Shown: piece after piece, positions 1 to 13,691 of the stretch | Position numbering within the stretch: position 1 is the first letter of the stretch | Layout of the letters: each line of letters starts with the position of its first letter | Virus record (IMG/VR): IMGVR_UViG_2734482780_000014 | Location: 1-13,691 of that record | DNA length: 13,691 nucleotides | Origin: a virus | Taxonomy: Duplodnaviria > Heunggongvirae > Uroviricota > Caudoviricetes | Direction: 5' to 3' (one strand) | Made by a program: the position numbers and the translations under genes | The notes under the pieces: generated by a model | What the model saw: only the letters and a program-made list of their open reading frames with translations | Database searches by the model: none | What the model was told of the DNA's origin: nothing

Positions 1-1254
1 ATGCTGGAACAAATGGGCATTGCCGCGAAGCAAGCCTCGTATAAATTAGCGCAACTCTCCAGCCGCGAAAAAAATCGCGTGCTGGAAAAAATCGCCGATG
101 AACTGGAAGCACAAAGCGAAATCATCCTCAACGCTAACGCCCAGGATGTTGCTGACGCGCGTGCCAATGGCCTTGGCGAAGCGATGCTTGACCGTCTGGC
201 ACTGACGCCCGCACGGCTGAAAGGCATTGCCGATGATGTGCGCCAGGTGTGTAACCTCGCCGATCCGGTGGGGCAGGTAATCGATGGCAGCGTACTGGAC
301 AGCGGCCTGCGTCTTGAGCGTCGTCGCGTGCCGCTGGGGGTGATTGGCGTGATTTATGAAGCGCGCCCGAACGTGACGGTTGATGTCGCTTCGCTGTGCC
401 TGAAAACCGGTAATGCGGTGATCCTGCGTGGTGGCAAAGAAACCTGTCGCACTAACGCGGCAACGGTGGCGGTGATTCAGGACGCCCTGAAATCCTGTGG
501 CTTACCGGCGGGTGCCGTGCAGGCGATTGATAATCCTGACCGTGCGCTGGTCAGTGAAATGCTGCGTATGGATAAATACATCGACATGCTGATCCCGCGC
601 GGCGGGGCTGGTTTGCATAAACTGTGCCGCGAACAGTCGACAATCCCGGTGATCACAGGTGGTATAGGCGTATGCCATATTTACGTTGATGAAAGCGCAG
701 AGATCGCTGAAGCATTAAAAGTGATCGTCAACGCGAAAACTCAGCGACCGAGCACATGTAATACGGTAGAAACGTTGCTGGTGAATAAAAACATCGCCGA
801 TAGCTTCCTGCCCGCATTAAGCAAACAAATGGCGGAAAGCGGCGTGACATTACACGCAGATGCAGCTGCGCTGGCGCAGTTGCAGACAGGCCCTGCGAAG
901 GTGGTGGCGGTTAAAGCCGAAGAGTATGACGATGAATTTCTGTCATTAGATTTGAACGTTAAAATCGTCAGCGATCTTGACGATGCCATCGCCCATATTC
1001 GTGAACACGGCACACAACACTCCGATGCGATCCTGACCCGCGATATGCGCAACGCCCAGCGTTTTGTTAACGAAGTGGATTCGTCCGCTGTTTACGTTAA
1101 CGCCTCTACGCGTTTTACCGACGGCGGCCAGTTTGGTCTGGGTGCGGAAGTGGCGGTAAGCACACAAAAACTCCACGCGCGTGGCCCAATGGGGCTGGAA
1201 GCACTGACCACTTACAAGTGGATCGGCATTGGTGATTACACCATTCGTGCGTAA
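1..1254 (+). CDS. proA: gamma-glutamyl phosphate reductase (glutamate-5-semialdehyde dehydrogenase), complete 417 aa
   Basis: Full-length ORF starting at ATG at position 1; translation recognised as E. coli ProA over its whole length (from memory); followed by thrW as in the E. coli proBA-thrW locus. Confidence 0.96.
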
Positions 1255-1299
1255 ATAAAACCGGGTGATGCAAAAGTAGCCATTTGATTCACAAGGCCA

Positions 1300-1328
1300 T
1301 TGACGCATCGCCCGGTTAGTTTTAACCT
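1300..1328 (+). promoter_or_regulatory. candidate sigma70 promoter for thrW (-35 TTGACG 1300-1305, 17-nt spacer, -10 TAACCT 1323-1328)
   Basis: Hexamers read directly about 40 nt upstream of the tRNA 5' end; the -10 match is weak. Confidence 0.3.
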
Positions 1329-1368
1329 TGTCCACCGTGATTCACGTTCGTGAACATGTCCTTTCAGG

Positions 1369-1444
1369 GCCGATATAGCTCAGTTGGTAGAGCAGCGCAT
1401 TCGTAATGCGAAGGTCGTAGGTTCGACTCCTATTATCGGCACCA
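1369..1444 (+). tRNA. thrW: tRNA-Thr (anticodon CGU), 76 nt with encoded CCA
   Basis: GCCGATATAGCTCAGTTGGTAGAGCAGCGCATTCGTAATGCGAAGGTCGTAGGTTCGACTCCTATTATCGGCACCA: cloverleaf with D-loop AGCTCAGTTGGTAGAGC, anticodon loop TTCGTAA, T-loop GGTTCGACTCC. Position immediately after proA fits thrW. Confidence 0.95.
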
Positions 1445-1458
1445 TTAAAATCAATAAG

Positions 1459-2622
1459 TTATACATCATTAGTACCTTCCTTATTTTTTGACTGGGACAA
1501 ATTTGGGACCGATGGGTTCAGGATCGAGTCTATTTGCCGTGCGTGTTCGGTAAGGTGATTAGGTGCAAGGTGAGCATATCGACGAACCATTTCGATAGAC
1601 TCCCAGCCTCCCATTTCCTGTAAAACTGACAACGGGACTCCGGCTTGAACCAGCCAACTTGCCCAGGTGTGTCTCAAGTCGTGAAATCTGAAATCATCAA
1701 TACCAGCCCGTCTCAGCGCCGCTTTCCAGGCTGTGTTTGCGTCATACCGCATCTTCCTTACTGTTGGCGCTTTCGTTCCGTCTGGTTTGGTACAGCTTTC
1801 CTTGTACACAAATACCCAACGGTGATGATTCCCGATTTGTTTTTTCAATACGCGACATGCAGTATCATTCAGCGCAACGCCAATTGCGCGGTTTGATTTA
1901 CTCTCTTCCGGGTTTATCCATGCCACCCGGCGCTGCATATCTATTTGTTGCCATTCAAGGTTGATGATGTTCGAGCGTCTTAAGCCTGTTGCCAGTGCAA
2001 ATTCAACAACAGACTTTAATGGCTCCGGACATTCATCAATCAGCCTTTGTGCTTCATGGGGCTCCAGCCAGCGGATCCGTTTATTCTTTGGTTGAGGCAC
2101 TTTAATAATTGGTGCCTTATCCAGCATTTTCCATTCACGCTCTGCGGCTCTTAGTAGGGCCTTTATAAATGAAAGATGCGTAGCCTTCGTTGCAACGGAC
2201 GCTGGTTTTGGCGTGTATTCTGGAACAGGTTTCCCTTTTTTTCTGCATGCTTCTGCCCTGAGTTTCCAGTTTTCCTCATGACGCCGGTTCGTCATTTTCT
2301 GCATTGCTGAATAAATTTTTGATTCAGTAATGTCTCTTAGTTGCATTCCTGCGAAATGTTGAAGCCAGAATCCGATCCGGCTTTTGTCATCGTCCAGTGA
2401 TTTTTTATGTGCTTTCTCTTCAAGCCACCTGACACACGCTTCCTCGAACGTTATATCAGGTATTTCACCAAGTTTGCTGACCCGCCATGCTTCAGCCTTT
2501 AGCTTGTCATGGAGTTCTGTCGCCTGCCTTTTGTCCTTTGTTCCAAGAGACTGTTTAAATCTTTTACCGTTCGGCAATGTGAAACTGGCGTACCATATTT
2601 CACCTCTGCGGAAGAGTGACAT
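1459..2622 (-). CDS. int: tyrosine site-specific integrase, P22 Int-like, 387 aa
   Basis: 387-aa ORF adjacent to thrW; translation closely resembles phage P22 integrase as remembered (MSLFRRGE...HDLRHTWAS...VRRYAHL); ATG at 2622 with SD AGAGGAAAG upstream. Confidence 0.94.
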
Positions 2623-2849
2623 TTTCTTTCCTCTGTTATGCCATCACCCGCGCTCACCTGGACAGTATGCAGCGGAGACTGAAGAGCCGCAATGCAGGCT
2701 TGTCGTGTTGTGAGGTAAGGAGATTTATTCTTAGTGGGATCTTTGCGTGTTGCCTGAAGACGCCCTGTGCGTATCCAGTTAATGGCAGTCGGTCTGGATA
2801 TCTTGAGAAAATGACAGGCCTCATCGAGTGTGAGGCTGTATGGCTCCAT
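2499..2849 (-). CDS. xis: excisionase (P22 Xis-like), 116 aa from internal ATG at 2849
   Basis: ATG at 2849 preceded by AAGAGGTGAAATA; product [38 protein letters not shown]... resembles P22 Xis; overlaps the int 5' end by 124 nt. The ORF-track start at 2933 is probably an upstream extension. Confidence 0.8.
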
Positions 2850-3154
2850 TATTTCACCTCTTGCTGTGACATTGTTGAAAAATGGATACCAGCTCGTTGC
2901 TGCCAGACGATCCAACCGAGAGTCATATCCCATGCCATGTATTCGTTATCGCCGTTTTTTGCTCTCCGACGATCTACTAAGTCACCGAAACGCTTTTCCA
3001 TGAATAATTCATAAGCTTCGCGTTCATCTGGTTCTACTTCCAGAGATAGGAGTGCGATTTCATAAGCACGGCGCTCAATATCGTCTCGCACGTCAAGGCT
3101 GCTGATACGCTCTTTAATTTCTTTAATCAGTTCTTTGTCGGTAAAAGTGGTCAT
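2849..3154 (-). CDS. yfdT: hypothetical early-left phage protein, 101 aa (YfdT-like by size and position)
   Basis: ORF with ATG at 3154; its stop overlaps the xis ATG (TAATG). Symbol assigned from remembered CPS-53 gene sizes and order (yfdP 120, yfdQ 274, yfdR 178, yfdS 120, yfdT 101), not from alignment. Confidence 0.55.
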   Translation of the reverse strand: MTTFTDKELIKEIKERISSLDVRDDIERRAYEIALLSLEVEPDEREAYELFMEKRFGDLVDRRRAKNGDNEYMAWDMTLGWIVWQQRAGIHFSTMSQQEVK

Positions 3155-3516
3155 TATGCTCCAGCCTCCGGTGCTTTTGGCATTACTGCCCAGTGAGTGA
3201 TATTGACGTTTTCAAGGTCCCCGACCTGAAATGTCCACTGCCATTCTCCGGTTTCTTTTTGTCCCCAGGTGTACCAGAGAGAACGCCAGCCAATTAGCCA
3301 GCCTTCTCCGTTAGCATCGAATAACAAAACACTTTCATTTGCTGGTGGCAGTTCAGTTGACACTGGTATTACTTTGTTTTCCTGTGCTGCACATTTAGCT
3401 TCAAGCGCATCGAATTTACGCACCAGGTATTCAGCATCTGTTTCATTTACTTTCAGATCTCGCGGTACACATCTCCCACGAAGAAACCCTTCCATTTCGA
3501 AAACATTCATGCGCAT
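3154..3516 (-). CDS. yfdS: hypothetical early-left phage protein, 120 aa (YfdS-like)
   Basis: ATG at 3516 (second ATG at 3510 forms an ATGA overlap with the upstream stop); its stop overlaps the next start as TAATG at 3154. Confidence 0.6.
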   Translation of the reverse strand: MRMNVFEMEGFLRGRCVPRDLKVNETDAEYLVRKFDALEAKCAAQENKVIPVSTELPPANESVLLFDANGEGWLIGWRSLWYTWGQKETGEWQWTFQVGDLENVNITHWAVMPKAPEAGA

Positions 3517-4043
3517 TTGCGTAACTCCGATAACTCGTTAAAGCGTTCCATAAACATCCCGTAGGCATGGCCCGGTGCCAGTGGAATCACGTTGAACATC
3601 TCTGTTGCCGGGATACCTTCCAGTACAGGCCAGAAAGAGCCATCATCAAGCCCGAGATCGCGGCGTTCGGTTGCCAGCATGATGAGATCGGCATATTTCA
3701 CGGGCGTACTCATAACTGGGGGTAACCCGTATTTCTCACGGATTACGGCGTCTATTTTTTCTTCCATTTGTTTATAGTCAGGAAGAAGGCGTTTCAGTGG
3801 TGCGGGAATGTCCTGGCAATACGCTTCTGTTGCATCATGCATTAACGCTTCAAAAGCAAATTCCTGCGGCACCAACTGGCTGCAAAGAACCGCATGTTGG
3901 GCGACGCTGTAGAAGTGCGAAAGATGACCGGCAAAGCGACAGATATTTGAAAGGGAAACCGCGATATCGTTAATATCGATGTCGTCTTTATTTATCCTGT
4001 CATAATAAAAATGCTTCCCGGAAAAAGTTTTAATAAATGACAT
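3507..4043 (-). CDS. yfdR: HD-domain phosphohydrolase (YfdR-like 5'-deoxynucleotidase family), 178 aa
   Basis: H...HD signature (..LMHDATEAY..) in the translation; ATG at 4043 preceded by GGAG 8 nt upstream. The ORF-track start at 4070 is a GTG extension. Confidence 0.8.
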   Translation of the reverse strand: MSFIKTFSGKHFYYDRINKDDIDINDIAVSLSNICRFAGHLSHFYSVAQHAVLCSQLVPQEFAFEALMHDATEAYCQDIPAPLKRLLPDYKQMEEKIDAVIREKYGLPPVMSTPVKYADLIMLATERRDLGLDDGSFWPVLEGIPATEMFNVIPLAPGHAYGMFMERFNELSELRKCA

Positions 4044-4170
4044 TTTGTTCTCCACGTATATGCGCTGCACCGCGCTGAATTCTGGTAAAAAGAATCCCTC
4101 ACCATCCGGCGATTATTGAGTAAATTACGTTTCCATAAATGCCCCCGCAGGGGCATTTGCAGTAATGAAA

Positions 4171-4995
4171 TCAGGCGGTGAAAGTACCAATAAAGGTTTC
4201 TACTTTGCTGTCCTTGAATTTCTCAACAAGCAGATCACGAAATTCGTTAGCCATTTCTTCCTGCACCGCCTCCAGCTGAATAATGCGCAGAACCAGTACA
4301 GGACGATCGCCAGTGATAATACTGAGGCGTAATTTAAACGGACGTTCTTTCAGACCTTCAAACGGAACGCATTTAAATTCAAATGCCACTGGCATAATGT
4401 CTTTGATCTTCGCTTCGACAGACTCCATCAGGGAGCGTTTGCCGCTGAAGTCATTATCTTCAAAATCAGCGGTCTGGTTTGCTTCAATCGTGATTTTACG
4501 GACAGCCGCAGCCGCTTTTGTTGCCTGAATAGCGTCACCATTAGCATCAAAGCCCACAAGATAGTCGGCCCAGTCTTCAATCCATTCTGCCAGTGACTTC
4601 TGGGAGTTACGCTCGCCGTTAACAGACAACAGAGCAGAGAACGGTGCTGTCTTTTTCAGTTTGAGTGTGGCGGTGTTATCTGCGTGACCTGGTTCATCAA
4701 TAGTACCCAGGTTAAGCACACTGACGGCACGCATATTATCAGCATCGATAAAGCAGCGGGTGCCTTCATCTGCAAGATCTTTAGAATAACGGGTAAAGTC
4801 ATCGATGCTGGCAGTGGAAAGCGCACCACGGAAACGGAAGCGATTTAAATTAAATTTTTCCAGATCATGAATGCGGAAATTCTCAGGCAATGCCACAGCA
4901 TCGGCACCAATCTTACTGATAATTTCATTAACACCCTGAGCAGAAATAAGGGCATGGATTTGATTAATTGAGGTTGCGTCTAAGTTCTGAGACAT
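4171..4995 (-). CDS. yfdQ: hypothetical phage protein, 274 aa (YfdQ-like, DUF2303-type by recollection)
   Basis: ATG at 4995 with SD GAGGA upstream; size and position match yfdQ of CPS-53. Confidence 0.65.
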
Positions 4996-5060
4996 AATAA
5001 GTCCTCACTATATAAAGATATTCAGTGATGAGATAAATAATCAGTTAATTAAAAACGATA

Positions 5061-5423
5061 TTAACGACCTGCTGCGCGGAGTTTTCCGTCAGGTTCACCG
5101 GCAAGAGTCAGTAACTGTCCCTGGTCTTCCTGCAGAATAGTCAGGCGACCACCGCGATTGACATACATCGGCGTTTCGGTGGTGTCTTCTTCGGAAATTT
5201 TCCCGCGGTTAGTCGGGCGAACATATGAGAGTTTGTGTTTGATTTTCACACGGTTCTCATCAAATGGTTCGATTTCCAGGTTGAGTGAGACCTTACCTTT
5301 GGTTTTCGTGTTCATCACACCGGAAGCGACTTCACTGAGAACTGCGCCGATTTTGGTTTCAAATACGCCGCCGTCCAGCTCCCCGATAAATGCCTGCACA
5401 TCAGTACTGCGTTCGCTAGCCAT
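5061..5423 (-). CDS. yfdP: hypothetical phage protein, 120 aa (YfdP-like)
   Basis: ATG at 5423 preceded by GAGGAG at 8 nt. The upstream 106 codons of ORF 5061-5741 are Arg/Cys-rich read-through of GC-rich non-coding DNA and were excluded. Confidence 0.65.
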   Translation of the reverse strand: MASERSTDVQAFIGELDGGVFETKIGAVLSEVASGVMNTKTKGKVSLNLEIEPFDENRVKIKHKLSYVRPTNRGKISEEDTTETPMYVNRGGRLTILQEDQGQLLTLAGEPDGKLRAAGR

Positions 5424-5471
5424 TTTGCTGCTCCTCATCATATCGACCCTGCAAGGCCGATTAGTTTCTCC

Positions 5472-5560
5472 ACAAAACAGAGAAGAACACCTGCGGTGGC
5501 AGCCGCCCGGATGGATTGGGTTATGAGCCCGTCGTCCGGTGATGCTCTTCTCTGTTTTGT
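5472..5560. repeat. perfect 14-bp inverted repeat (ACAAAACAGAGAAG / CTTCTCTGTTTTGT) flanking a 61-nt GC-rich spacer
   Basis: Arms at 5472-5485 and 5547-5560 read directly; lies in a ~470-bp region with no credible ORF on either strand. Confidence 0.7.
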
Positions 5561-5824
5561 AAAAAGGACGGTACCAGCCGGAAGCAAGGGTACAAACTGG
5601 TACCTCCAGGACTACACACAGCATAAAGTTGTGGTGCCGGGTGCCTCCCGGTGCCTGGCGAAGGTTGCACACCAGACGGGTGGGTATCCACAGAAGGTCG
5701 ACTGTCAGCCTCAACCTTAACCCGCGTGCGCTGAGCCGCATTCACCACAACGCTAAGGATTCTCTCTGGTTAAAAATACTTAGCTGTTATGTGCCTGCTT
5801 TTAGCCACATCAGGCGAGGTGGAC

Positions 5825-5876
5825 CTGGTTATTCCCCAACAACAAGGATTCGGTTAATCTGGTTATCCCCAACAAC
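5825..5876 (+). repeat. two direct repeats CTGGTTAT(T)CCCCAACAAC with 34-bp period, immediately upstream of the 5892 start codon
   Basis: Copies at 5825-5843 and 5859-5876 differ by one T; further GGTTA motifs at 5767 and 5853. Confidence 0.7.
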
Positions 5877-5891
5877 GCAAAAGGAAAAGAA

Positions 5892-6326
5892 ATGTCCGGT
5901 AATATCTACACGCTGTACAAATCCCACTGTGAAAATGTTGGAAAGTATCGGGGCATTGAAATCAGTGGGGTAGTGTCATCAGTCGAAATAAGCAAAGTGG
6001 AATCAAGGGCAACATTACTTACTCTTCTGGACCTTGTCTTACATGAGCACCGGAAGAAATTCGGCACTCCCTATAATCAGTTGAATGGGAAAAAGGCTCT
6101 GGTTCACCTTATTCTGATGAAGCATCACTGGATGCCAAAACAGATTAATGAGATGAAATTTGATGAACTTCTTCTTTCAATTCAGGATGAACTCACACTT
6201 GATAAAATAAGCGTAACCGCCCAGAAATTTTTAGATTATCGAGACTGGAGATCACAAATTCATCACTTTGATGATTTTGACGAAAATGAATGGGATCCTA
6301 ATTTGTCTGCACAATATCTAAAGTAA
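5892..6326 (+). CDS. hypothetical protein, 144 aa; AT-rich moron opposite to the leftward early operon
   Basis: ATG at 5892 with AAGGA 6 nt upstream; clearly more AT-rich than flanks; no recognisable motif; acidic C-terminus. Confidence 0.7.
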   Translation: MSGNIYTLYKSHCENVGKYRGIEISGVVSSVEISKVESRATLLTLLDLVLHEHRKKFGTPYNQLNGKKALVHLILMKHHWMPKQINEMKFDELLLSIQDELTLDKISVTAQKFLDYRDWRSQIHHFDDFDENEWDPNLSAQYLK

Positions 6327-6504
6327 CATCCTGTGATAAAACCGTGATTTCCTGATCCAGTTTTTTTAAGGAGTCTATTGTTTCCTGTCGATAAGACAGC
6401 ACTTCACGAAGCTGGTTTATAGCTGCCAGCTTCTTTGCCATCCACTCGTAAATTTCCTCATCTGTGTAGCCAGGCGCGACGATTTTGGGTTCTGTTTTGT
6501 GCAT
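6298..6504 (-). CDS. hypothetical small protein, 68 aa (first gene downstream of candidate pL; acidic, coiled-coil-like, not N-like)
   Basis: ATG at 6504 preceded by GAGGAG at 9 nt; the ORF-track start at 6519 is TTG. Its 3' end overlaps the 144-aa ORF convergently by 29 nt. Confidence 0.6.
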   Translation of the reverse strand: MHKTEPKIVAPGYTDEEIYEWMAKKLAAINQLREVLSYRQETIDSLKKLDQEITVLSQDVTLDIVQTN

Positions 6505-6548
6505 TTCACATCTCCTCAAGTTATCAGTTACTTGTTGATGGGGACCAG

Positions 6549-6561
6549 ATTGTTAAAGAGC
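6549..6561 (-). promoter_or_regulatory. rrn-type boxA-like element GCTCTTTAACAAT in the pL leader RNA, immediately 3' of a hairpin
   Basis: Minus-strand sequence matches the remembered rrn boxA core (TGCTCTTTAACAAT...) at 13 of 13 positions; lies between candidate pL and the first leftward gene. Confidence 0.5.
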
Positions 6562-6563
6562 TA

Positions 6564-6587
6564 AGCGTCCTGTAGGGCGCTTTTTTG
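6564..6587 (+). terminator. intrinsic terminator for plus-strand transcripts (stem AGCGUCC/GGGCGCU, loop UGUA, then UUUUUU)
   Basis: 7-bp stem with one G-U pair followed by a T6 run on the plus strand; the same hairpin on the minus strand precedes the boxA-like element. Confidence 0.55.
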
Positions 6588-6671
6588 TTGCTAACGAATC
6601 ATCCTGGACTTCATATGCCCCAGGCGGCTACTTCGTGGGCGTCCTGCCTGTTTGTTGTTTCGCTTGGGTAC

Positions 6672-6699
6672 ATTATGTATCTCAAAGGTACATTATCAA
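6672..6699 (-). promoter_or_regulatory. candidate pL (-35 TTGATA 6699-6694, 16-nt spacer, -10 CATAAT 6677-6672) overlapped by GGTACATTAT direct repeats (putative OL)
   Basis: Hexamers read on the minus strand just downstream of the repressor terminator; GGTACATTAT copies at 6667-6676 and 6687-6696 overlap the -10 and -35. Confidence 0.45.
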
Positions 6700-6702
6700 G
6701 TA

Positions 6703-6727
6703 TAAAAAAACCTGCCGAAGCAGGTTC
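6703..6727 (-). terminator. intrinsic terminator downstream of the repressor gene (stem AACCUGC, UUCG tetraloop, U7 tract)
   Basis: Minus strand reads GAACCUGC-UUCG-GCAGGUU followed by UUUUUUU, 12 nt after the repressor stop. Confidence 0.7.
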
Positions 6728-6738
6728 ATAAACATTGA

Positions 6739-7413
6739 TTAGGCTTTGATTTTGTATCTTCTTGGTTTTCCTGAGAAAATCACTGTACCAATTATAGAGC
6801 AATTACCGTTGATCTTAATGTAAGGCTCAGGCCAGTTTGGGTTTAACGCTTTGAGATAACGCTGTGTCCCATCTTCTATCAACCTTTTGAAGGTGGTTTC
6901 ACCTGTATCGTGCATCAATGCAATAACGTCGTCACCGTGGCAGGCAGGTACTTCAGGATCGACAAAAATCATGTCTCCCGGGCGGTACTCATCAATCATT
7001 GAATCACCTATCACCCGCAAGATATAAGTCATTTCCCCACAGGGTACAGGGCAGGGATACGTTTCTGCTGTGCTCAAATCAACCTCAGAATATCCAACTT
7101 CTTTCCATGCTCCGGCCTGTACCCATGATATGACAGGGACTAATGTGATTTGTTTATTAGTGATTGAAACATCAGGTTTTTTTGTGATGTTCGTTGTCTG
7201 GTGTTCTTGATCGAGCCATCCGACAGGCAGGTCGAAACATTTTTCGATGTGTCGTGCCATGCTGTCACCGATATTTTTAGTAGCACCATCTCCCATAAAC
7301 CTGCTGGTCTGGGTTGGCTCGCGATCAATCATAGTGGCAAAGGAAGAATTCCCGCCAACACCATCTCTCAGTTTTCTGGCGTTAGACCGCCGGATGTCAT
7401 GGATTGTTTTCAT
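6739..7413 (-). CDS. CI-type prophage repressor with C-terminal S24 LexA-like peptidase domain, 224 aa
   Basis: C-terminal region resembles P22 C2 (..VIGDSM.. and LNPNWPEPYIKINGNCSIIG vs remembered LNPQYPMIEINGNCKIIG); divergent to a cro-like gene across an operator region. Confidence 0.9.
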   Translation of the reverse strand: MKTIHDIRRSNARKLRDGVGGNSSFATMIDREPTQTSRFMGDGATKNIGDSMARHIEKCFDLPVGWLDQEHQTTNITKKPDVSITNKQITLVPVISWVQAGAWKEVGYSEVDLSTAETYPCPVPCGEMTYILRVIGDSMIDEYRPGDMIFVDPEVPACHGDDVIALMHDTGETTFKRLIEDGTQRYLKALNPNWPEPYIKINGNCSIIGTVIFSGKPRRYKIKA

Positions 7414-7428
7414 AACGAAATTAAAACC

Positions 7429-7449
7429 CTTGTACCGTTAAGGTACAAG
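7429..7449. promoter_or_regulatory. operator palindrome CTTGTACC-GTTAA-GGTACAAG (GTAC-N7-GTAC)
   Basis: Perfect 8-bp inverted arms in the repressor/cro intergenic region. Confidence 0.6.
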
Positions 7450-7453
7450 TATC

Positions 7454-7481
7454 TTGAAGGTTCATTTCAATCATGTAATAT
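7454..7481 (+). promoter_or_regulatory. candidate pR (-35 TTGAAG 7454-7459, 16-nt spacer, -10 TAATAT 7476-7481)
   Basis: Hexamers upstream of the cro SD GGAGG (7489-7493); the second operator overlaps the predicted start site. Confidence 0.4.
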
Positions 7482-7498
7482 GTACACCGGAGGTACAT
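7480..7498. promoter_or_regulatory. operator palindrome ATGTAC-ACCGGAG-GTACAT (GTAC-N7-GTAC)
   Basis: Same half-site and spacing as the 7429-7449 palindrome. Confidence 0.55.
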
Positions 7499-7503
7499 AT
7501 TGT

Positions 7504-7704
7504 ATGAAAGCGTATTGGGACTCTTTAACCAAAGAACAGCAGGGCGAGTTGGCCGGAAAAGTTGGCTCAACACCTGGCTACTTACGGCTGGTTTTCAATG
7601 GCTATAAAAAAGCCAGTTTTGTGCTGGCTAAAAAACTTGAGCAATGCACGTCAGGTGCAATTACGAAATCTGACTTAAGACCGGATATCTATCCGAAAGA
7701 TTAG
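7504..7704 (+). CDS. Cro-like HTH regulator, 66 aa (YdaS/Cro family with LRPDIY motif)
   Basis: ATG at 7504 preceded by GGAGG; divergent from the repressor. The larger ORF-track call 7201-7704 is antisense to the repressor and only its last 66 codons are credible. Confidence 0.75.
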   Translation: MKAYWDSLTKEQQGELAGKVGSTPGYLRLVFNGYKKASFVLAKKLEQCTSGAITKSDLRPDIYPKD

Positions 7705-7735
7705 CAGAACACTTTCAATTTTTAACCACAGAACG

Positions 7736-8299
7736 ATGAGGCTAATCGTGGGTAAGCATCACTGGAAAATAGAAAAACAGCCTGAGTGGTACGTGAAAGC
7801 TGTCAGAAAAACTATCGCGGCGTTGCCGGGTGGTTACGCTGAAGCGGCTGACTGGCTCGATGTAACAGAAAATGCTTTATTCAACCGCCTTCGTGCAGAT
7901 GGCGATCAGATTTTCCCGCTGGGATGGGCAATGGTTTTACAGCGTGCTGGTGGCACTCACTTCATTGCTGATGCTGTGGCGCAGTCTGCAAATGGCGTCT
8001 TTGTGTCTCTTCCTGACGTCGAGGATGTGGACAACGCCGATATCAACCAACGCCTGCTGGAGGTCATTGAACAGATCGGCAGTTATTCAAAACAGATTCG
8101 TTCAGCAATTGAAGACGGTGTAGTGGAACCGCATGAGAAGACAGCAATTAACGACGAGTTGTACCTCTCAATTTCGAAGCTGCAGGAGCATGCAGCACTG
8201 GTCTACAAAATTTTTTGCATTTCAGAAAGTAATGACGCCCGCGAGTGTGCAGCTCCGGGCGCCGTGGCGTGTCGTGACTGTGGAGAAACTAACGCATGA
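7736..8299 (+). CDS. hypothetical phage early protein, 187 aa (possible CII-like/YdaT-like regulator; function not verified)
   Basis: First gene after cro; ATG at 7736 (alternative GTG at 7748 after GAGG); its stop overlaps the next start as ATGA. Confidence 0.65.
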
Positions 8300-8634
8300 A
8301 CAGTTTAACAACACACTACCGTCGCTCGCAACTTATTGCGCTTCCTGTACCGGGTGGAAAAGCGAAGGTGGAGTATTGCTATGCAGTGAATGTACCAGGT
8401 GACAGGGAAATTGTAACCCACAGCTTTGCAGAGTGGGCTGTGGGGGATTTCAACCGGCAGAAGGAGGCAGTCCTTTGCGACAAGTTAACCGCTGGTTCAA
8501 AGATCACTACGGAGTGCCCGTCAGAGTCATTCGTTGGGAGCCGGAAACACAACGGGTTATCTACCTCCGTGAAGGCTATGAGCATGAGTGCTTCAGCCCG
8601 CTCGAACAGTTTCGTCGTAAATTCAGGGAAATAG
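8296..8634 (+). CDS. hypothetical protein, 112 aa (possibly YmfM-like by size and position; see frameshift finding)
   Basis: ATG at 8296 overlaps the upstream stop; the C-terminal third is Ser-rich and low-complexity, while an alternative frame (8433-8654) reads more protein-like. Confidence 0.45.
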
Positions 8635-8643
8635 AGGTCGGTC

Positions 8644-8886
8644 ATGAGCACTAAATTAACCGGCTATGTATGGGATGGTTGCGCAGCGTCAGGCATGAAA
8701 TTATCCAGCGTGGCAATTATGGCCCGCTTGGCTGATTTCAGTAATGACGAAGGTGTGTGCTGGCCATCAATTGAAACCATTGCCCGCCAGATTGGCGCGG
8801 GGATGAGTACCGTCAGAACGGCTATCGCACGGCTGGAAGCAGAAGGCTGGTTAACGCGTAAGGCGCGTCGCCAGGGTACCGGGTGA
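8644..8886 (+). pseudogene. N-terminal winged-HTH fragment (80 aa) of a phage replication initiator (O-like), truncated
   Basis: ATG at 8644 with GAGGT upstream; translation has the HTH pattern typical of phage replication-initiator N-termini (recognised from memory, not aligned); the ORF stops after 80 aa and is followed by tail-fibre sequence. Confidence 0.55.
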
Positions 8887-8950
8887 TGACTCTCCGGGAG
8901 AAAACAAAAGCCAGACCGACTACTGGCAGGAGCTGAAAGAGGGCTTCTCC

Positions 8951-9166
8951 GTGGTTGTCATACTGAGTAACGGGCGTGATGAGCGCGGTCAGTTTGCCTC
9001 GTATGATGTGGTGGACGATGTCCGGCAGATGCTCTTTAAGGCCCTGCTGGGCTGGAACCCGGCTATTACAGAGGGTGGTGTTGTTGCGGCAACGACTAAA
9101 CCTGCAGGTGCGAATGAAACACGCCCACGAAATGTCGCTTTTAACTATATTGTGAGGGCTGCATAA
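8951..9166 (+). pseudogene. C-terminal fragment of a side tail fibre protein (variable part)
   Basis: Ends ...NETRPRNVAFNYIVRAA with stop overlapping the tfa ATG (TAATG) as in stf-tfa pairs; the frame is open only back to 8855, so the N-terminal bulk is missing. Confidence 0.6.
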
Positions 9167-9768
9167 TGAATAACGCAGAATTAAACAGTGAATTAATTGC
9201 CACTATGGCAGGAGAAATTACTGTTTATAACTTTGACGTCATGAGTCGGGAGTATATTTCAGCTTCAACTGAATATCTTGCTGTTGGTGTCGGCATTCCG
9301 GCATATTCCTGTTTAGATGCTCCAGGCACCTACAAAGCTGGTTATGCAATCTGCCGCTCTGCAGATTTTAACTCATGGGAATATGTACCAGACCATCGCG
9401 GTGAAATTGTCTTTAGCACCGAAACAGGAGAATCAAAAGAAATCACAGCACCGGGTGATTACCCTGATAATACAACCACTATCGCCCCGTTAACGCCATA
9501 CGATAAATGGGATGGTGAGAAATGGGTGACGGATACCGAGGCACAGCATAGCGCCGTAGTAGATGCAGCAGAAGCACAGCGCCAGTCGCTGATTGATACA
9601 GCAATGGCTTCTATCAGTCTGATTCAACTGAAATTACAGGCCGGACGGAACCTGACGCAGGCAGAAACCGCCCGACTTAACGCTGCGCTGGATTACATTG
9701 ACGCGGTGACGGCAACAGATACCAGCACCGCACCGGATGTCATCTGGCCTGAACTGCCGGAGGCGTAG
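9166..9768 (+). CDS. tfa: tail fibre assembly protein (Tfa), 200 aa
   Basis: C-terminus ...DYIDAVTATDTSTAPDVIWPELP matches the conserved Tfa C-terminal motif. Confidence 0.88.
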   Translation: MNNAELNSELIATMAGEITVYNFDVMSREYISASTEYLAVGVGIPAYSCLDAPGTYKAGYAICRSADFNSWEYVPDHRGEIVFSTETGESKEITAPGDYPDNTTTIAPLTPYDKWDGEKWVTDTEAQHSAVVDAAEAQRQSLIDTAMASISLIQLKLQAGRNLTQAETARLNAALDYIDAVTATDTSTAPDVIWPELPEA

Positions 9769-10171
9769 GCCATTCAATATCTGGCGCACTGGAAGTATCG
9801 ACCAGTTCCAGTGCGTCCAGATAATCCAGCCACAAATTATATTGCGCCAGTTCCTCACCTTTCAGACGACCAATCGCCGCTTTACCAGGCCATTGTTTAC
9901 TGTTCATGTATTCGTTGGCCTGATTAACTAATCGCTGTTTATTTGATTCAGCGATTGAGATTAATTCTTCGCTGGTAAGTGGTGGCGCATCCTGCCATGC
10001 TGGAAAACCATTTTTATCTGAACCAAGTATTTTACCATCAGGCCATGCAACTCCTGCGAACTCAGAATAAATAGTAAAGTTTATTTTCGTAGCGTTCTCA
10101 GGAATGGTTTGGCTATCTGGTGAAATATAAAATCCCGAATCAGAGGGATTAAAATAATATGTCTTTTCCAT
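9740..10171 (-). CDS. tfa: tail fibre assembly protein (alternate, opposite orientation), 143 aa
   Basis: C-terminus ...WLDYLDALELVDTSSAPDIEWPTPP; convergent 29-nt overlap with the plus-strand tfa, as in invertible tail-fibre segments. Confidence 0.88.
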   Translation of the reverse strand: MEKTYYFNPSDSGFYISPDSQTIPENATKINFTIYSEFAGVAWPDGKILGSDKNGFPAWQDAPPLTSEELISIAESNKQRLVNQANEYMNSKQWPGKAAIGRLKGEELAQYNLWLDYLDALELVDTSSAPDIEWPTPPAVQAR

Positions 10172-10173
10172 AG

Positions 10174-10572
10174 TTAATACCCCACAGCCATCCAGTAAAT
10201 TGAATTTGTTGTAGCAGAAGTGTAAGTAAATCTGATTTTAGTTCTGTTGGTACTTCCAATATCAAAGCCCACAGAACGGGCAGAAGGATCATTAGTTGAA
10301 ATAAGAGCGTTTACCGAACGACAAGCAGCAGGGAAAGCTACAGGTAATGTTATATCAACTGTTCCAACACTTCCTCCGGTTGGTGAGACAGAAAAACTCC
10401 CCCATTGAATAATCATCCCCCCAGGTAATTTCTGGTATCCATTGGCGGTCAATGAGTTACCAAAGCTGTTTATATCCGGTACCTGATTTTCTCCTGTCCC
10501 CACATTCCTCTTTGCCGCTTCTCCCAAACCAACGTTTATGAAAATGCAGAAATAACGAGCAAATGGCATCAT
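10174..10572 (-). pseudogene. alternate tail fibre C-terminal variable domain (inverted orientation), lacking the constant N-terminal part
   Basis: Immediately upstream of tfa' on the minus strand; the N-terminal about 18 codons read through the recombination site and pin leader. Confidence 0.6.
10519..10544. promoter_or_regulatory. Hin/Gin/Pin-type recombination site (hix/gix-like) TTCTCCCAAACC-AA-CGTTTATGAAAA
   Basis: About 20 of 26 positions match the remembered hixL consensus, including AAACC/GTTT half-site cores and AA centre; located just upstream of pin. Confidence 0.5.
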
Positions 10573-10598
10573 TCCTGCTTTTGTCAGGGAGATCTACC

Positions 10599-10790
10599 AT
10601 GCTTATTGGCTATGTACGTGTGTCAACAAATGACCAGAACACAGATCTACAACGTAATGCGCTGAACTGTGCAGGATGCGAGCTGATTTTTGAAGATAAG
10701 ATAAGCGGTACAAAGTCCGAGAGCCTAGGGCTGACACTGCTGTTCTTGATGCAAATTAAAGGATTTAATAGTGAGTTGTGGCCTTACTAA
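10599..10790 (+). pseudogene. pin: truncated DNA invertase (Pin/Gin/Hin serine recombinase); homology covers only about 42 N-terminal residues
   Basis: MLIGYVRVSTNDQNTDLQRNAL.CAGCE.IFEDK.SGT... is nearly identical to the e14 Pin N-terminus as remembered, then diverges (..SESLGLTLLF..) and stops at 10790; ATG at 10599 after AGGGAG. Confidence 0.85.
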
Positions 10791-10799
10791 TGTAAGGCC
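10780..10799. terminator. hairpin GGCCTTAC-TAAT-GTAAGGCC between the convergent pin' and GmrSD-like genes (possible bidirectional terminator)
   Basis: Perfect 8-bp stem; moderately T-rich only on the plus-strand side; sits where pin homology breaks down. Confidence 0.3.
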
Positions 10800-10823
10800 G
10801 CTATAATCATTTTATTAATTGCA

Positions 10824-12713
10824 TTAATCGTGTTTTGGCCATACTTTCAATGCAATTTCCCCCAACTTTTTACCCCGCTCCAGGATTTCACCTTCATCCC
10901 ATTTATCCTTAAGTATAAGTGGTATGTTCAGTCGTAGATTGGTGTGGACGATGAGAGCATCACGTTTTTTCAGAAATACAGCATTCTGAACAGAACGGTT
11001 TACGCTAAGGTTAAGCAAAGTTAGATTTCCCAACGTAGCTATCGCTTGTTGCCGTTTCCTTACCAGTAGCTGTTCAGGGGTAAGATCTGTTCCAGACAGA
11101 ACAATTTGGTTCAATACCGTTGCATCTGAATTTGTCACCATATGACCATTTTCGAGAGGCCAACAGGAATACCAACTTTGAGGCATAAGATGATCGATAT
11201 CGAGATTGGAAAGATTTGGAACATCAGGCTTCTCTGTCTTCACTTGGCGACAAAGTTCTCTTTCAAGTTCCGTTAACATTGAGCGCATTTTCGGTGCGTC
11301 GAGCCTGCCAGGATAAAGTGGAGCATTGATGCAAGCATTGAGAAATTCTGAGTCACCAGGCCAACGTGAGGCTTCGCCATTTAAGCTATTGAGGATATTA
11401 CGTAACTCAACACTGGAAATTTCCGTTTTAGACAAGTGCCGCAATACATTCATAAATACATTGTTGTAATTCTTTGGCGTCAGGCCACATACGGCTCTTC
11501 GTACTACGTAGGAGACAAGATCATTATACATGGCTGCTTTCTCACCATCGGCGATGTTAGCTATCGAAATGAACAAAGCAAGCGGATAAAGTGTCGTCAC
11601 ATCATAGGCTGCGATGCGATGTCCAAAGTGTGAGATGGGGGTTGTGCCAAAACCACCAACCAATTCTTTATATTGTGATGCATATTGTTTGAGGCGCTTT
11701 ACTTGCAGATCAGCTCGTTGTGAAGGCAAGTCCTTACTTACATAATCACGATACTCATTGTAAAGACGAGACAGATCAATTTCACGTTGCCTTTCTGATT
11801 GCAATGTCGCATGCACTAGCCACTCCATGCGTGGTTTATTAATACGTCCACGGCGTTGCCTTTCCGACCAGTATGTATCTTCAAAGCTCTTCCACTCATT
11901 TTCATATAATTCAATAGCATTAATATTTTCATGCTCAGCGCACATAAAGATGTAGTTGCGAATAAGATCCGTGGCATGAAGTTCCGCCCCTCGGCCATTT
12001 AATGTTTCAAAAATTATTTGGGCATCATCTTCAGCTTCGAGAAATATGCTTACCAGTTTCAGATCCGTCAAGACAGCCTCAATTAGTGCTACAGCATTTT
12101 CATGTGGTGAGTACTTTTCTATTTTAATCCATTTTATAAAGGCTTCAGTAAAAAACCATAATGCCTCTAGTGACGGCGGGTGGTTGAAATGTTTACGTAA
12201 CGTACCATGTTGCGTGAAGCTATCAGAAAATACATCACGGAGATCGTCAATGTTTTCAACATTAAAACTTTGAATAAAATGAGTTTGGTCTCGAAAAGTT
12301 GGCCACAGTTTGAAGCATTCTACCTTTTTATTTCGCATAGTTGCTTCGTTTGTATTTTTCAAGCAAGTCAATACTAACCCTTCCAAATCAGAAAGGCCTG
12401 TAGCACGCAATGATAATCGAATGGATGCCAGAATATATTGAAGAGTGGTTAAACGTTGCTGGCCGTCAATAATATGTATGGTATCTACACCTAACAAGCT
12501 GTTTTTGAGTTGAGGTTCCAGCACCACCGCGCCAAGGAAATGGGGAGTTGGTTTTGTTCCCAAAAGTCGGCTATGTGCTTTTTCGAAGATATCCTCCAGC
12601 AAAGCTGACCATTGGTTTTGTTGCGTCCATACGTAGGCACGTTGATAGAATGGAACACGATATTGTCGTTGATTTTGGAAAAGTTGCTGGATGGTTAGCG
12701 TTTCGGATTTCAT
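10824..12713 (-). CDS. GmrSD-family type IV restriction endonuclease-like protein (N-terminal DUF262, C-terminal DUF1524 His-Me finger), 629 aa
   Basis: N-terminal VPFYQRAYVW and IIDGQQR motifs; C-terminal DIDHLMPQSW nuclease motif; ATG at 12713 with AGGT upstream; AT-rich compared with proA. Confidence 0.8.
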   Translation of the reverse strand: MKSETLTIQQLFQNQRQYRVPFYQRAYVWTQQNQWSALLEDIFEKAHSRLLGTKPTPHFLGAVVLEPQLKNSLLGVDTIHIIDGQQRLTTLQYILASIRLSLRATGLSDLEGLVLTCLKNTNEATMRNKKVECFKLWPTFRDQTHFIQSFNVENIDDLRDVFSDSFTQHGTLRKHFNHPPSLEALWFFTEAFIKWIKIEKYSPHENAVALIEAVLTDLKLVSIFLEAEDDAQIIFETLNGRGAELHATDLIRNYIFMCAEHENINAIELYENEWKSFEDTYWSERQRRGRINKPRMEWLVHATLQSERQREIDLSRLYNEYRDYVSKDLPSQRADLQVKRLKQYASQYKELVGGFGTTPISHFGHRIAAYDVTTLYPLALFISIANIADGEKAAMYNDLVSYVVRRAVCGLTPKNYNNVFMNVLRHLSKTEISSVELRNILNSLNGEASRWPGDSEFLNACINAPLYPGRLDAPKMRSMLTELERELCRQVKTEKPDVPNLSNLDIDHLMPQSWYSCWPLENGHMVTNSDATVLNQIVLSGTDLTPEQLLVRKRQQAIATLGNLTLLNLSVNRSVQNAVFLKKRDALIVHTNLRLNIPLILKDKWDEGEILERGKKLGEIALKVWPKHD

Positions 12714-13298
12714 TGTTTACCTATAAGTGACATTCCACAAGAGTAAGAAATTCATCTGAGTCAGAATAATCATTTTTATGTAGTCATGATACAGTGTATT
12801 TGTTGCTGGTGAAGTAAAAACGAGAAATCCCGCTTTTGAATGCTGACGTGCTACGGCTTCATTGGATATTCTCTTTTGTCTGTTCTCCATTGCGTCGGTG
12901 TTTTGTCGAGATTGTTAGCACACTGTTGCTGCTGTTTTTTTATCCAAGCGCTGCTAAATCATTGTAGATGGCACTATCGGGTATTGAAGCTGCAGACATG
13001 TCGTATACAATAGTCAGCTGCGACTGGCTGGTGAACTTCCGATAGTGCTAGTATTGAATTATGTCAAGCCGTTATCGATTTTACGTATTTTTTGTATGAG
13101 AGGATTTGCACCTCCTCCCACCGCTCCTCCATGACTTTACGCCACTGTCTCTAGGGCTGCTAAGTGCCAGGAACGGACATTGGTGGTATGCAGGATCAGA
13201 GGGGAATAAAAAACTTATTATATTGATTAAGATGGGGCTATTCTTGGCGACTTAAGCCGATATGATACAGATCAAGTGTGCTCTTTTAGGGTTCCATA

Positions 13299-13691
13299 TT
13301 GATTAACAGAAAATTAATTGTAGAGTTAATCGTATATTTCATGAGAGATGAATTGATTCGTGGATTTTCGAAGTGGGGGCGTCGGGTAAAGACTGACCTG
13401 ACACAGATGGATGAATCTTTCCCAATAATGCCGATTTTTAATGAGCACATCAATTCTATTTTCAAAGTGTATATTCTATTCAATGAAAAATATCACATCA
13501 CAAAAGCTTTAAAAGCAAAAGAATTCATAATAAACTTCATTGGAGAGAGAGAGGATTATATTGATGATGAATACATTATCGCAGAACTAAAAAATACACA
13601 AACAGGTTTGAGTATAAACAAAAAAACCATTCCTACATCAGCGCTTGAGAAAATATCCGATTTTTACAGAATAAAAGAATACCTATTTTAG
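13299..13691 (+). CDS. hypothetical protein, 130 aa (116 aa if it starts at ATG 13341); very AT-rich, divergent from the GmrSD-like gene
   Basis: ORF ending with TAG exactly at the window end; TTG at 13299 follows AGGG by 7 nt, ATG at 13341 has no SD; no recognisable motif. Confidence 0.5.
   Translation: MINRKLIVELIVYFMRDELIRGFSKWGRRVKTDLTQMDESFPIMPIFNEHINSIFKVYILFNEKYHITKALKAKEFIINFIGEREDYIDDEYIIAELKNTQTGLSINKKTIPTSALEKISDFYRIKEYLF

Follow-up and report, generated by a model that had tools for sequence, protein, structure and literature searches.

At positions 1 to 13,691 of the IMG/VR virus record IMGVR_UViG_2734482780_000014 (Caudoviricetes), the 13,691 nucleotides that form the window analysed here, the segment 5823–6592 is, on sequence comparison, a cargo hotspot in SfV-like phages. 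This segment carries a gene for a 144-amino-acid (aa) protein of the ECs1072 family (5892–6326, plus strand), which lies antisense to the leftward early operon of a prophage. It is likely that the segment constitutes a functional, independently expressed accessory cassette. With somewhat more reserve, we favour the view that it is one of many interchangeable accessory (moron) cassettes in this operon, together with the overall explanation of its expression given below.

The swapping of cassettes was observed directly. The SfV genome is collinear with the window up to 5822 (99% identical) and again from 6593 (95%), with a different cargo between these two points, which provides the comparison with related phages lacking the insert that the initial annotation had proposed. 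For the survey of the hotspot, a 21-mer from the left flank (5777–5797) was used to retrieve IMG/VR loci, at least 120 in number, and the sequences following this flank in 122 loci formed 14 clusters with at least 10 distinct cargo cassettes. Seven of these cassettes (type B) possess a common leader with a near-invariant repeat 1 and a diverged repeat 2, as well as the same terminator, and each encodes a different single plus-strand gene of approximately 145–175 aa. In the case of PhiR29_1, the same two-repeat leader and the same terminator were observed, but the plus-strand gene is a different one of 171 aa. The repeats and the terminator therefore belong to the slot and not to the ECs1072 gene, because seven cassettes share them. 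Type A comprises three cassettes (including those of SfV, SfII and e14 ymfI), characterized by a shorter leader and convergent minus-strand small genes. The alternative cargoes showed no match in Pfam, NCBIfam (except for YmfI) or PADLOC, where eight of these cargo proteins were searched; only sub-threshold matches to LprI and to coiled coils were found. The e14 gene lit, previously offered as an example of cargo in this slot, is misplaced there: the e14 genes of the slot are ymfI and ymfJ, a YmfI-family cassette was found in this position, and lit is a gene that we take to lie outside int in the e14 map. The SfV-type cargo includes an unannotated 81-aa plus-strand open reading frame (ORF; locus L003, ~3125–3421) and an adjacent minus-strand ORF of 73 aa whose N-terminus resembles the ClpX zinc finger (NCBIfam ClpX, E 5e-6).

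As marks of a moron we considered a composition unlike that of the flanks, an own terminator and replacement among close relatives, and each of these was found in the cassette. Replacement is evident in SfV and in the at least ten alternative cassettes. The AT-rich composition noted earlier was also recovered, with a GC content of 0.37–0.42 over 5851–6600 compared with 0.52–0.55 over 5251–5850 to its left. At the right end, constant in type-B cassettes, an intrinsic terminator for plus-strand transcription was identified at 6563–6590 (plus strand), consisting of an 8-bp stem (6563–6582) followed by TTTTTTG on the plus strand. Its centroid hairpin has an energy of -11.5 kcal/mol on the plus strand compared with -4.6 on the minus strand, and the much weaker minus-strand hairpin indicates that the terminator is orientation-specific. 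It ends ~80 nucleotides (nt) short of the pL-like promoter. The initial annotation had placed a terminator at 6564–6587 as part of an individual module; the plus-strand signal stands, but it also ends six other cargoes. Together with the lysogenic expression of the homologue STMMW_20121 (see below), the replacement in SfV, the own terminator and the lower GC content support the moron reading of this region.

The leader of the cassette contains two direct repeats. Repeat 1 (CTGGTTATTCCCCAACAAC, 5825–5843, plus strand) falls within the constant portion of the type-B leader and is directly followed by a Shine-Dalgarno-like AAGGA (5844–5848, plus strand), while repeat 2 (CTGGTTATCCCCAACAAC, also written CTGGTTAT-CCCCAACAAC; 5859–5876, plus strand) marks the left edge of the variable cargo. 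The starts of the repeats are spaced 34 nt apart, and 18–19 nt of each period are repeated. This 34-bp period had been described as a property of the module; the repeats are real but not private to it, as the same leader precedes six other cargoes. Across 57 type-B loci, repeat 1 varies at a single site (C/T) only, and repeat 2, in diverged form, is recognisable before all seven type-B cargoes, so the repeats are not a chance match. Additionally, a diverged two-repeat leader is present 5' of a 56%-identical homologue in an unrelated RecE-type phage (locus L007), and the duplication therefore looks maintained and not accidental. The gene has its own Shine-Dalgarno sequence, as claimed before, with AAGGA at 5881–5885 (plus strand), 6 nt before the ATG. 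The leader (5822–5900) is less structured than 199 of 200 shuffled sequences and is C/A-rich with Shine-Dalgarno-like AAGGA motifs, features that suit an open, efficiently translated 5' untranslated region. Control of the leader by CsrA or Hfq is a speculative idea at most: ACAAGGA and (ARN)n motifs are present, but ACARGGA occurs 4 times in the window compared with 3.2 expected. Type-A leaders hold a good promoter (TTCACC-17-TGgTATCTT). In the type-B leader of this locus, a candidate -10 element, GTTAAT, was identified at 5853–5858, which corresponds to a perfect TATAAT in one sister cassette.

The 144-aa protein was assigned to NCBIfam NF033230 ("ECs1072 family phage-associated protein") on the basis of a whole-protein hidden Markov model score of 157.8 bits (E 1.7e-46, 141 of 142 model positions), well above the curated cut-off of 70 bits that defines membership. 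It also matches PHROG 5286 (phrog_5286) with an E value of 1.5e-90. No Pfam match was obtained for this protein or for 44 family members, no defence model in PADLOC (PADLOC-DB v2) matched it, and a sequence-profile search of the PDB gave no match. The earlier statement that the protein has no recognisable domain thus stands with respect to Pfam, but not with respect to the curated family NF033230 and phrog_5286. The profile searches and structure prediction suggested for the protein in the initial annotation yielded the ECs1072 family and a confident all-helical model: AlphaFold, supplied with a 44-sequence alignment, returned a seven-helix model with a predicted local distance difference test score of 94.3, and comparison of this predicted fold with solved structures (PDB) and viral structures (BFVD) revealed no match. 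The product is predicted to be soluble and mildly acidic, no signal peptide or transmembrane segment was predicted, and no similarity to effectors or regulators was found. Conservation within the family is modest, with W134 invariant and L50, R54, L64, G66, A69 and H72 nearly invariant, and no catalytic motif was observed among the conserved positions. The modelled protein most likely acts by binding another protein.

The gene is under purifying selection at the protein level. For the ORF compared with the allele of E. albertii, the ratio of nonsynonymous to synonymous substitution rates (dN/dS) is 0.20 with a dS of 0.83, which indicates that 5892–6326 is truly coding, and the flanks are 92–100% identical. 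In the same comparison between E. coli and E. albertii (locus L008, 699–1133), the ORF is 68–87% identical, the leader 97–100%, and the partner gene and terminator 92–95%. The boundaries of an apparent allele exchange coincide exactly with the ends of the ORF in this alignment, with a divergent allele lying between conserved flanks. A survey of 5426 complete E. coli genomes detected the gene in 422 of them (7.8%), from many hosts, and an identical module was identified in Shigella phage SfIV and three coliphages.

An exhaustive profile search recovered 76 family representatives after clustering at 50% identity. With few exceptions they are stand-alone proteins of 145–155 aa, and all organism-named members belong to Enterobacterales. 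Members with 22–56% identity almost always stand alone and read antisense to the phage operon in which they lie, and they often have a convergent YdfC-like small gene and an STnc100-like RNA as neighbours. The gene occupies the Q-holin interval in ST64B and Klebsiella phages; prophages of Pectobacterium, Proteus and Lonsdalea carry it beside cI; in a P2-like Pantoea prophage, it is found within the Cox-to-A early operon; and a RecE-type early region also hosts a member (L007). One exception was a locus that is not phage-like in appearance. Full-length family ORFs are unannotated in ST64B (L009, 2845–3279, plus strand) and in Klebsiella phage KPP5665-2 (L010, 2848–3291, plus strand), where only the opposite-strand overlapping genes, sb50 and GP45 respectively, are annotated. 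Just downstream of the homologue in L007, the interval 5560–5950 is GC-rich and seemingly strongly structured, with no Rfam match at E < 0.01, and is followed by a 56-aa plus-strand ORF.

Within the cassette, the ECs1072-family gene converges on a minus-strand gene of the YdfC family that encodes a 68-aa protein (ATG at 6504 down to 6298) and is the first gene after the pL-like promoter. The 3' ends of the two genes overlap by 29 nt (6504 to 6298 against an ORF end at 6326), in agreement with the coding overlap reported before. The 68-aa gene had been regarded simply as the first gene of the pL operon; its position bears this out, but the gene is part of the swapped segment, is a member of the YdfC family and is a recurrent convergent partner. 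Membership was judged by full-length similarity to annotated YdfC-family proteins, and tblastn aligned the 68-aa protein to ydfC of the PPompW and PhiR42_1 phages with 39–41% identity across 97% of its length (E 3e-9). The protein is assigned to phrog_1744, and the motif EPxI..P.YTD.E...WM aligns between YdfC-like proteins. Using hhalign, the 68-aa type and the Sb50-type partners were related with 92.7% probability (E 4e-7). PADLOC gave no match for the 68-aa protein. A convergent YdfC-like partner accompanies the ECs1072-family gene in four of seven lineages (this one and three further): in the ST64B/Klebsiella and Pantoea lineages, the 3' overlap is 62–95 nt, while in Proteus the partner is located one gene further away.

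Lysogenic expression was observed for a homologue in ST64B, STMMW_20121, which shares 29% identity with the 144-aa protein (BLASTP E 5e-16) and is matched by the 44-member family profile with an E value of 3.7e-41. Its coordinates correspond to the unannotated ST64B family ORF of 435 bp, which lies 161 nt after the holin gene and overlaps the 360-bp STMMW_20131 (Sb50, YdfC-like) by 71 nt. According to Owen et al. 2020 (PMC7067206), STMMW_20121 is independently transcribed from its own mapped promoter, antisense to lytic genes, and was classed as a candidate accessory or regulatory gene. In the same data, it reaches 60–270 transcripts per million (TPM) in 16 of 17 lysogen conditions, with the highest value in InSPI2 (269 TPM) and 4.9 TPM in late stationary phase, while Q, holin and neighbouring lytic genes are mostly below 10 TPM in lysogens (PMC7067206). 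Additionally, ECs1072 of strain Sakai was detected by microarray, with an approximately fourfold drop at the stationary transition.

We propose the following explanation for these features. The slot would lie in the long untranslated stretch of the leftward early operon of SfV/SfIV/e14-type prophages, between the pL-like promoter and an STnc100-like RNA; its cargo here is an ECs1072-family gene that reads against the operon, placed 3'-to-3' with a YdfC-like gene that reads with it. In the lysogen, cI would hold pL off, and a weak promoter in or just before the repeats would drive the plus-strand gene, which would be translated from the unstructured C/A-rich leader. The plus-strand transcript would run antisense across the ydfC-like gene and stop at the terminator short of pL. 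Upon induction, strong pL transcription would oppose the plus-strand gene through polymerase collision and through fully complementary RNA, and expression would consequently be biased to the lysogenic state. We infer this antisense on/off wiring from the geometry of the genes.

Several points weigh against this explanation. A promoter scan upstream of the ORF gave no consensus sigma-70 site in the window, and the promoter site of type-A leaders is disrupted in the type-B leader of this locus, where its -10 element is interrupted. In ST64B, the convergent partner is also on in lysogens, at 23–258 TPM (PMC7067206), and there is therefore no simple lysogeny/lysis toggle in that phage. The expression data come from homologues of ~29% identity or from the Sakai allele and apply to this locus by analogy. 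With respect to a defence role, no PADLOC, Pfam, PDB or BFVD match ties the protein to defence, and the alternative cargoes include no known defence gene. Furthermore, the prophage is a deletion remnant, and a switch tied to lysis may therefore be under relaxed selection in it.

What the accessory cassette might do can be stated only tentatively. A role in phage-phage conflict, as exclusion or abortive infection and possibly together with the YdfC-like partner, is the function we would guess first, although we hold it to be less probable than not; the estimate draws on general knowledge of the usual roles of lysogen-expressed hotspot cargo. Rather doubtful is the more specific proposal that the ECs1072 protein, with its new all-helical fold, and the YdfC-like partner constitute a previously unrecognised two-gene conflict system, in which the interval from ydfC to STnc100 would serve as a plug-in site for expression, equipped with a common leader and terminator, whose interchangeable orphan cargoes would be on in lysogeny and opposed by operon read-through on induction. 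If true, about 8% of E. coli genomes would contain such a system, which would also be widespread in Enterobacterales phages.

A regulatory role was considered as an alternative, in which the protein, the antisense transcript or both would tune the lysis-lysogeny decision of the prophage itself, for example by damping a leaky pL or modulating induction. The cassette directly adjoins the immunity region, and the RNA made from it would be complementary to both the pL leader and the first gene of the pL operon. The label "accessory or regulatory" given to the homologue (PMC7067206) points in the same direction, as does the growth-phase dependence, with 4.9 TPM in late stationary phase compared with 60–270 TPM elsewhere and a Sakai signal that declines at the stationary transition. 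However, the family also occupies unrelated slots, such as the Q-holin interval and a P2-like early operon, which have no immunity promoter in their vicinity; the slot takes many unrelated cargoes in near-identical phages, unlike what would be expected of a core regulator; and the purifying selection at the protein level argues that more than the antisense RNA matters. We regard this role as unlikely.

It is more improbable that the two genes form a toxin-antidote or addiction-like pair, in which the ECs1072 and YdfC-like proteins would neutralise each other and the convergent overlapping transcripts would couple their levels, serving prophage stabilisation or abortive infection. The convergent, 3'-overlapping pairing has been found repeatedly, across four divergent lineages in two types of genomic slot; the two proteins are small and predicted to be soluble, and the ST64B genes are co-expressed in lysogens with a ratio that flips in late stationary phase (4.9 versus 101 TPM). 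The pairing is not obligatory, however: in 19 of 25 phage records a YdfC-like gene is present but no ECs1072 gene, ECs1072-family genes lack a YdfC-like partner in loci L007, L091 and L093, and in E. albertii the C-terminus of the partner is frameshifted. No similarity to known toxins or antitoxins was found in Pfam or PADLOC, and insertion of cargo into a shared ydfC-to-STnc100 backbone could explain the pairing.

To an equally small degree, we consider a host-directed lysogenic-conversion factor that would alter host physiology or virulence and not phage sensitivity. Neighbouring phages are serotype-converting and rich in conversion genes, 7.8% of complete E. coli genomes, with many different hosts, have the gene, and the ST64B homologue peaks in infection-like media (269 TPM in InSPI2). 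Against this, the homologue is on in nearly all conditions and is not infection-specific, and the protein has neither a predicted signal peptide or transmembrane segment nor similarity to effectors or regulators. Finally, although two direct repeats just 5' of a ~150-aa ORF in a prophage recall a type III toxin-antitoxin (ToxIN-like) arrangement with the repeats as RNA antitoxin and the ORF as toxin, this is hardly credible: in place of full-length tandem repeats followed by a terminator and a toxin gene there are only two copies with 18–19 of each 34-nt period repeated and no terminator before the ORF, the leader is unusually unstructured, the all-helical protein has no PADLOC or PDB match, and the sharing of the same repeats by six unrelated cargo genes rules such a system out.

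The accessory cassette can be compared with several known systems. Classical lambdoid morons such as lambda bor, HK97 gp15 and P22/lambda sieB-esc are independent units in phage operons that show odd composition, are variably present and are lysogen-expressed; lambda bor is inverted relative to its operon, and the functions demonstrated for such genes include serum resistance and superinfection exclusion. These morons differ from the ECs1072 cassette in that there is no sequence or fold similarity to it, and we know of no description in them of a leader and terminator common to several cargoes. STMMW_20121 of ST64B is the closest case, a gene of the same family encoding 144 aa, antisense to its operon and with a 3' overlap with a YdfC-like gene; unlike the gene studied here, it lies between Q and holin and not beside cI, and has neither the two-repeat leader nor the plus-strand terminator. 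The Qin dicBF operon (ydfA-ydfB-ydfC, a long untranslated region with DicF, dicB-ydfD) shares the operon-strand backbone of an immunity promoter, a ydfC-like gene, a long untranslated stretch, an STnc100-like RNA and early genes, but its untranslated stretch holds the sense-strand small RNA DicF, whereas an antisense protein-coding gene is found here. In Qin-like phages, the YdfC-like gene is followed by DicF and an STnc100-like RNA, and in PhiR42_1 (L098, 3061–3319, plus strand) the sequence downstream of ydfC holds DicF (76.7 bits) and, directly after it, an STnc100-like element (34.4 bits). Two minus-strand hypothetical proteins annotated over these PhiR42_1 RNAs are probably spurious. The e14 ymfI/ymfJ and SfV orf33 regions share both the slot and its left flank, and in them a small ORF on the plus strand converges on at least one small ORF on the minus strand, but they encode unrelated proteins behind a type-A leader with a promoter and without repeats or a plus-strand terminator. 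In Stx2 phages, the stx2AB moron slot likewise places cargo immediately upstream of STnc100 in a phage operon (PMC12370729); stx2, however, reads with the late operon and is Q-dependent, whereas the ECs1072 gene reads against its operon.

The ECs1072 family itself is already catalogued, and the homologue was previously flagged as lysogen-expressed. As far as the literature searches reach, the frame of shared leader and terminator with interchangeable orphan cargoes, the convergent YdfC-like pairing and the STnc100-like boundary appear to be undescribed, and no functional study emerged from literature searches on ECs1072, WP_000016389 and PhiR29. Should the cassette prove to have a phenotype, the lysogen-expressed prophage functions would gain a new small-protein family and approximately nine sister orphan cargoes, all of them delivered in one easily cloned frame. 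The ECs1072-family gene itself reaches about 8% of complete E. coli genomes and the Shigella serotype-converting phages. The shared leader and terminator, with the recurrent ydfC-like and STnc100-like flanks, mark accessory-cargo sites in lambdoid and P2-like phages, including the stx2 site. Such a cargo-slot map could be used by annotation pipelines and defence-gene screens, and it exposes likely mis-annotation over the STnc100-like RNA as well as family members that lack annotation in the records of ST64B and Klebsiella phages.

The constant left boundary of the slot is a structured RNA at 5559–5781 (minus strand), which forms part of the leftward early transcript. It matches Rfam RF02076 over the full model length (E 2e-6), although its 38.4 bits fall short of the 47-bit gathering score. 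The element is best called STnc100/PasD-like, and according to published work the STnc100 and PasD families blur into one another. Folding of 5412–5891 gave z = -4.6 on the minus strand compared with -1.7 on the plus strand, and the Klebsiella phage homologue has a 108-bit STnc100 at the same neighbouring position. STnc100 is located 75 nt downstream of stx2AB (PMC12370729). These observations suggest, as the most parsimonious backbone, a ydfC-like gene, a long untranslated stretch accepting cargo, and an STnc100-like RNA. The element occupies most of the "gap" between yfdP and the cassette, and SfIV_34 (a 226-aa ORF extending yfdP), SfIV_35 and a RefSeq pseudogene ("frameshifted hypothetical protein"), all in a stretch that includes 5438–5748 and 5061–5741, are likely mis-annotated non-coding RNA. 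Additionally, a 25-nt inverted repeat (5472–5496/5536–5560, 84% complementary) forms a long hairpin in the leftward transcript between the STnc100-like RNA and the start of yfdP.

Between this RNA and the leader lies a conserved junction (5777–5822), the last sequence in common with SfV-type phages, which contains the palindrome GCCTG (5793–5797)/CAGGC (5811–5815). The motif is kept upstream of the ECs1072 homologues in Pectobacterium, Proteus and Lonsdalea, and in Pantoea both half-sites have changed together to GCCGG/CCGGC. As an RNA hairpin, the palindrome is no more stable than shuffled sequences (z about 0); if functional, it is more likely a DNA site.

The window begins with proA and thrW (tRNA-Thr, 1369–1444), followed by an SfV/SfIV/e14-type prophage. 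On the minus strand, int and xis are followed by yfdT/S/R/Q/P (yfd genes 2849–5411, with yfdP at 5061–5411). The 144-aa ORF at 5892–6326 is the sole homology-supported plus-strand ORF between yfdP and cI, and the earlier description of it as the only plus-strand gene in this part of the pL operon holds. The immunity region comprises cI (6739–7413, minus strand), cro and a cII-like gene. A promoter scan identified the pL-like promoter TTGATA-16-CATAAT at 6699–6672 (minus strand), accompanied by two operator-like repeats GGTACATTA, the whole element spanning 6656–6699 (minus strand), and the cI terminator lies at 6727–6708 (minus strand). Near the plus-strand leader, cI operators were searched for and none were found. 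To the right, the prophage is a deletion remnant (8644–10790): the replication gene is cut at 8886, leaving an 80-aa protein, followed by two opposed tail-fibre-assembly genes, a C-terminal tail-fibre fragment and a 75-aa stump of a Pin/Hin-type invertase. Just past the remnant, a full-length GmrSD-type type IV (modification-dependent) restriction enzyme is encoded at 10824–12713 (minus strand), identified by PADLOC (mREase_IV, E = 0) and Pfam (GmrSD_N and GmrSD_C), and the thrW locus thus also holds a recognised defence gene.

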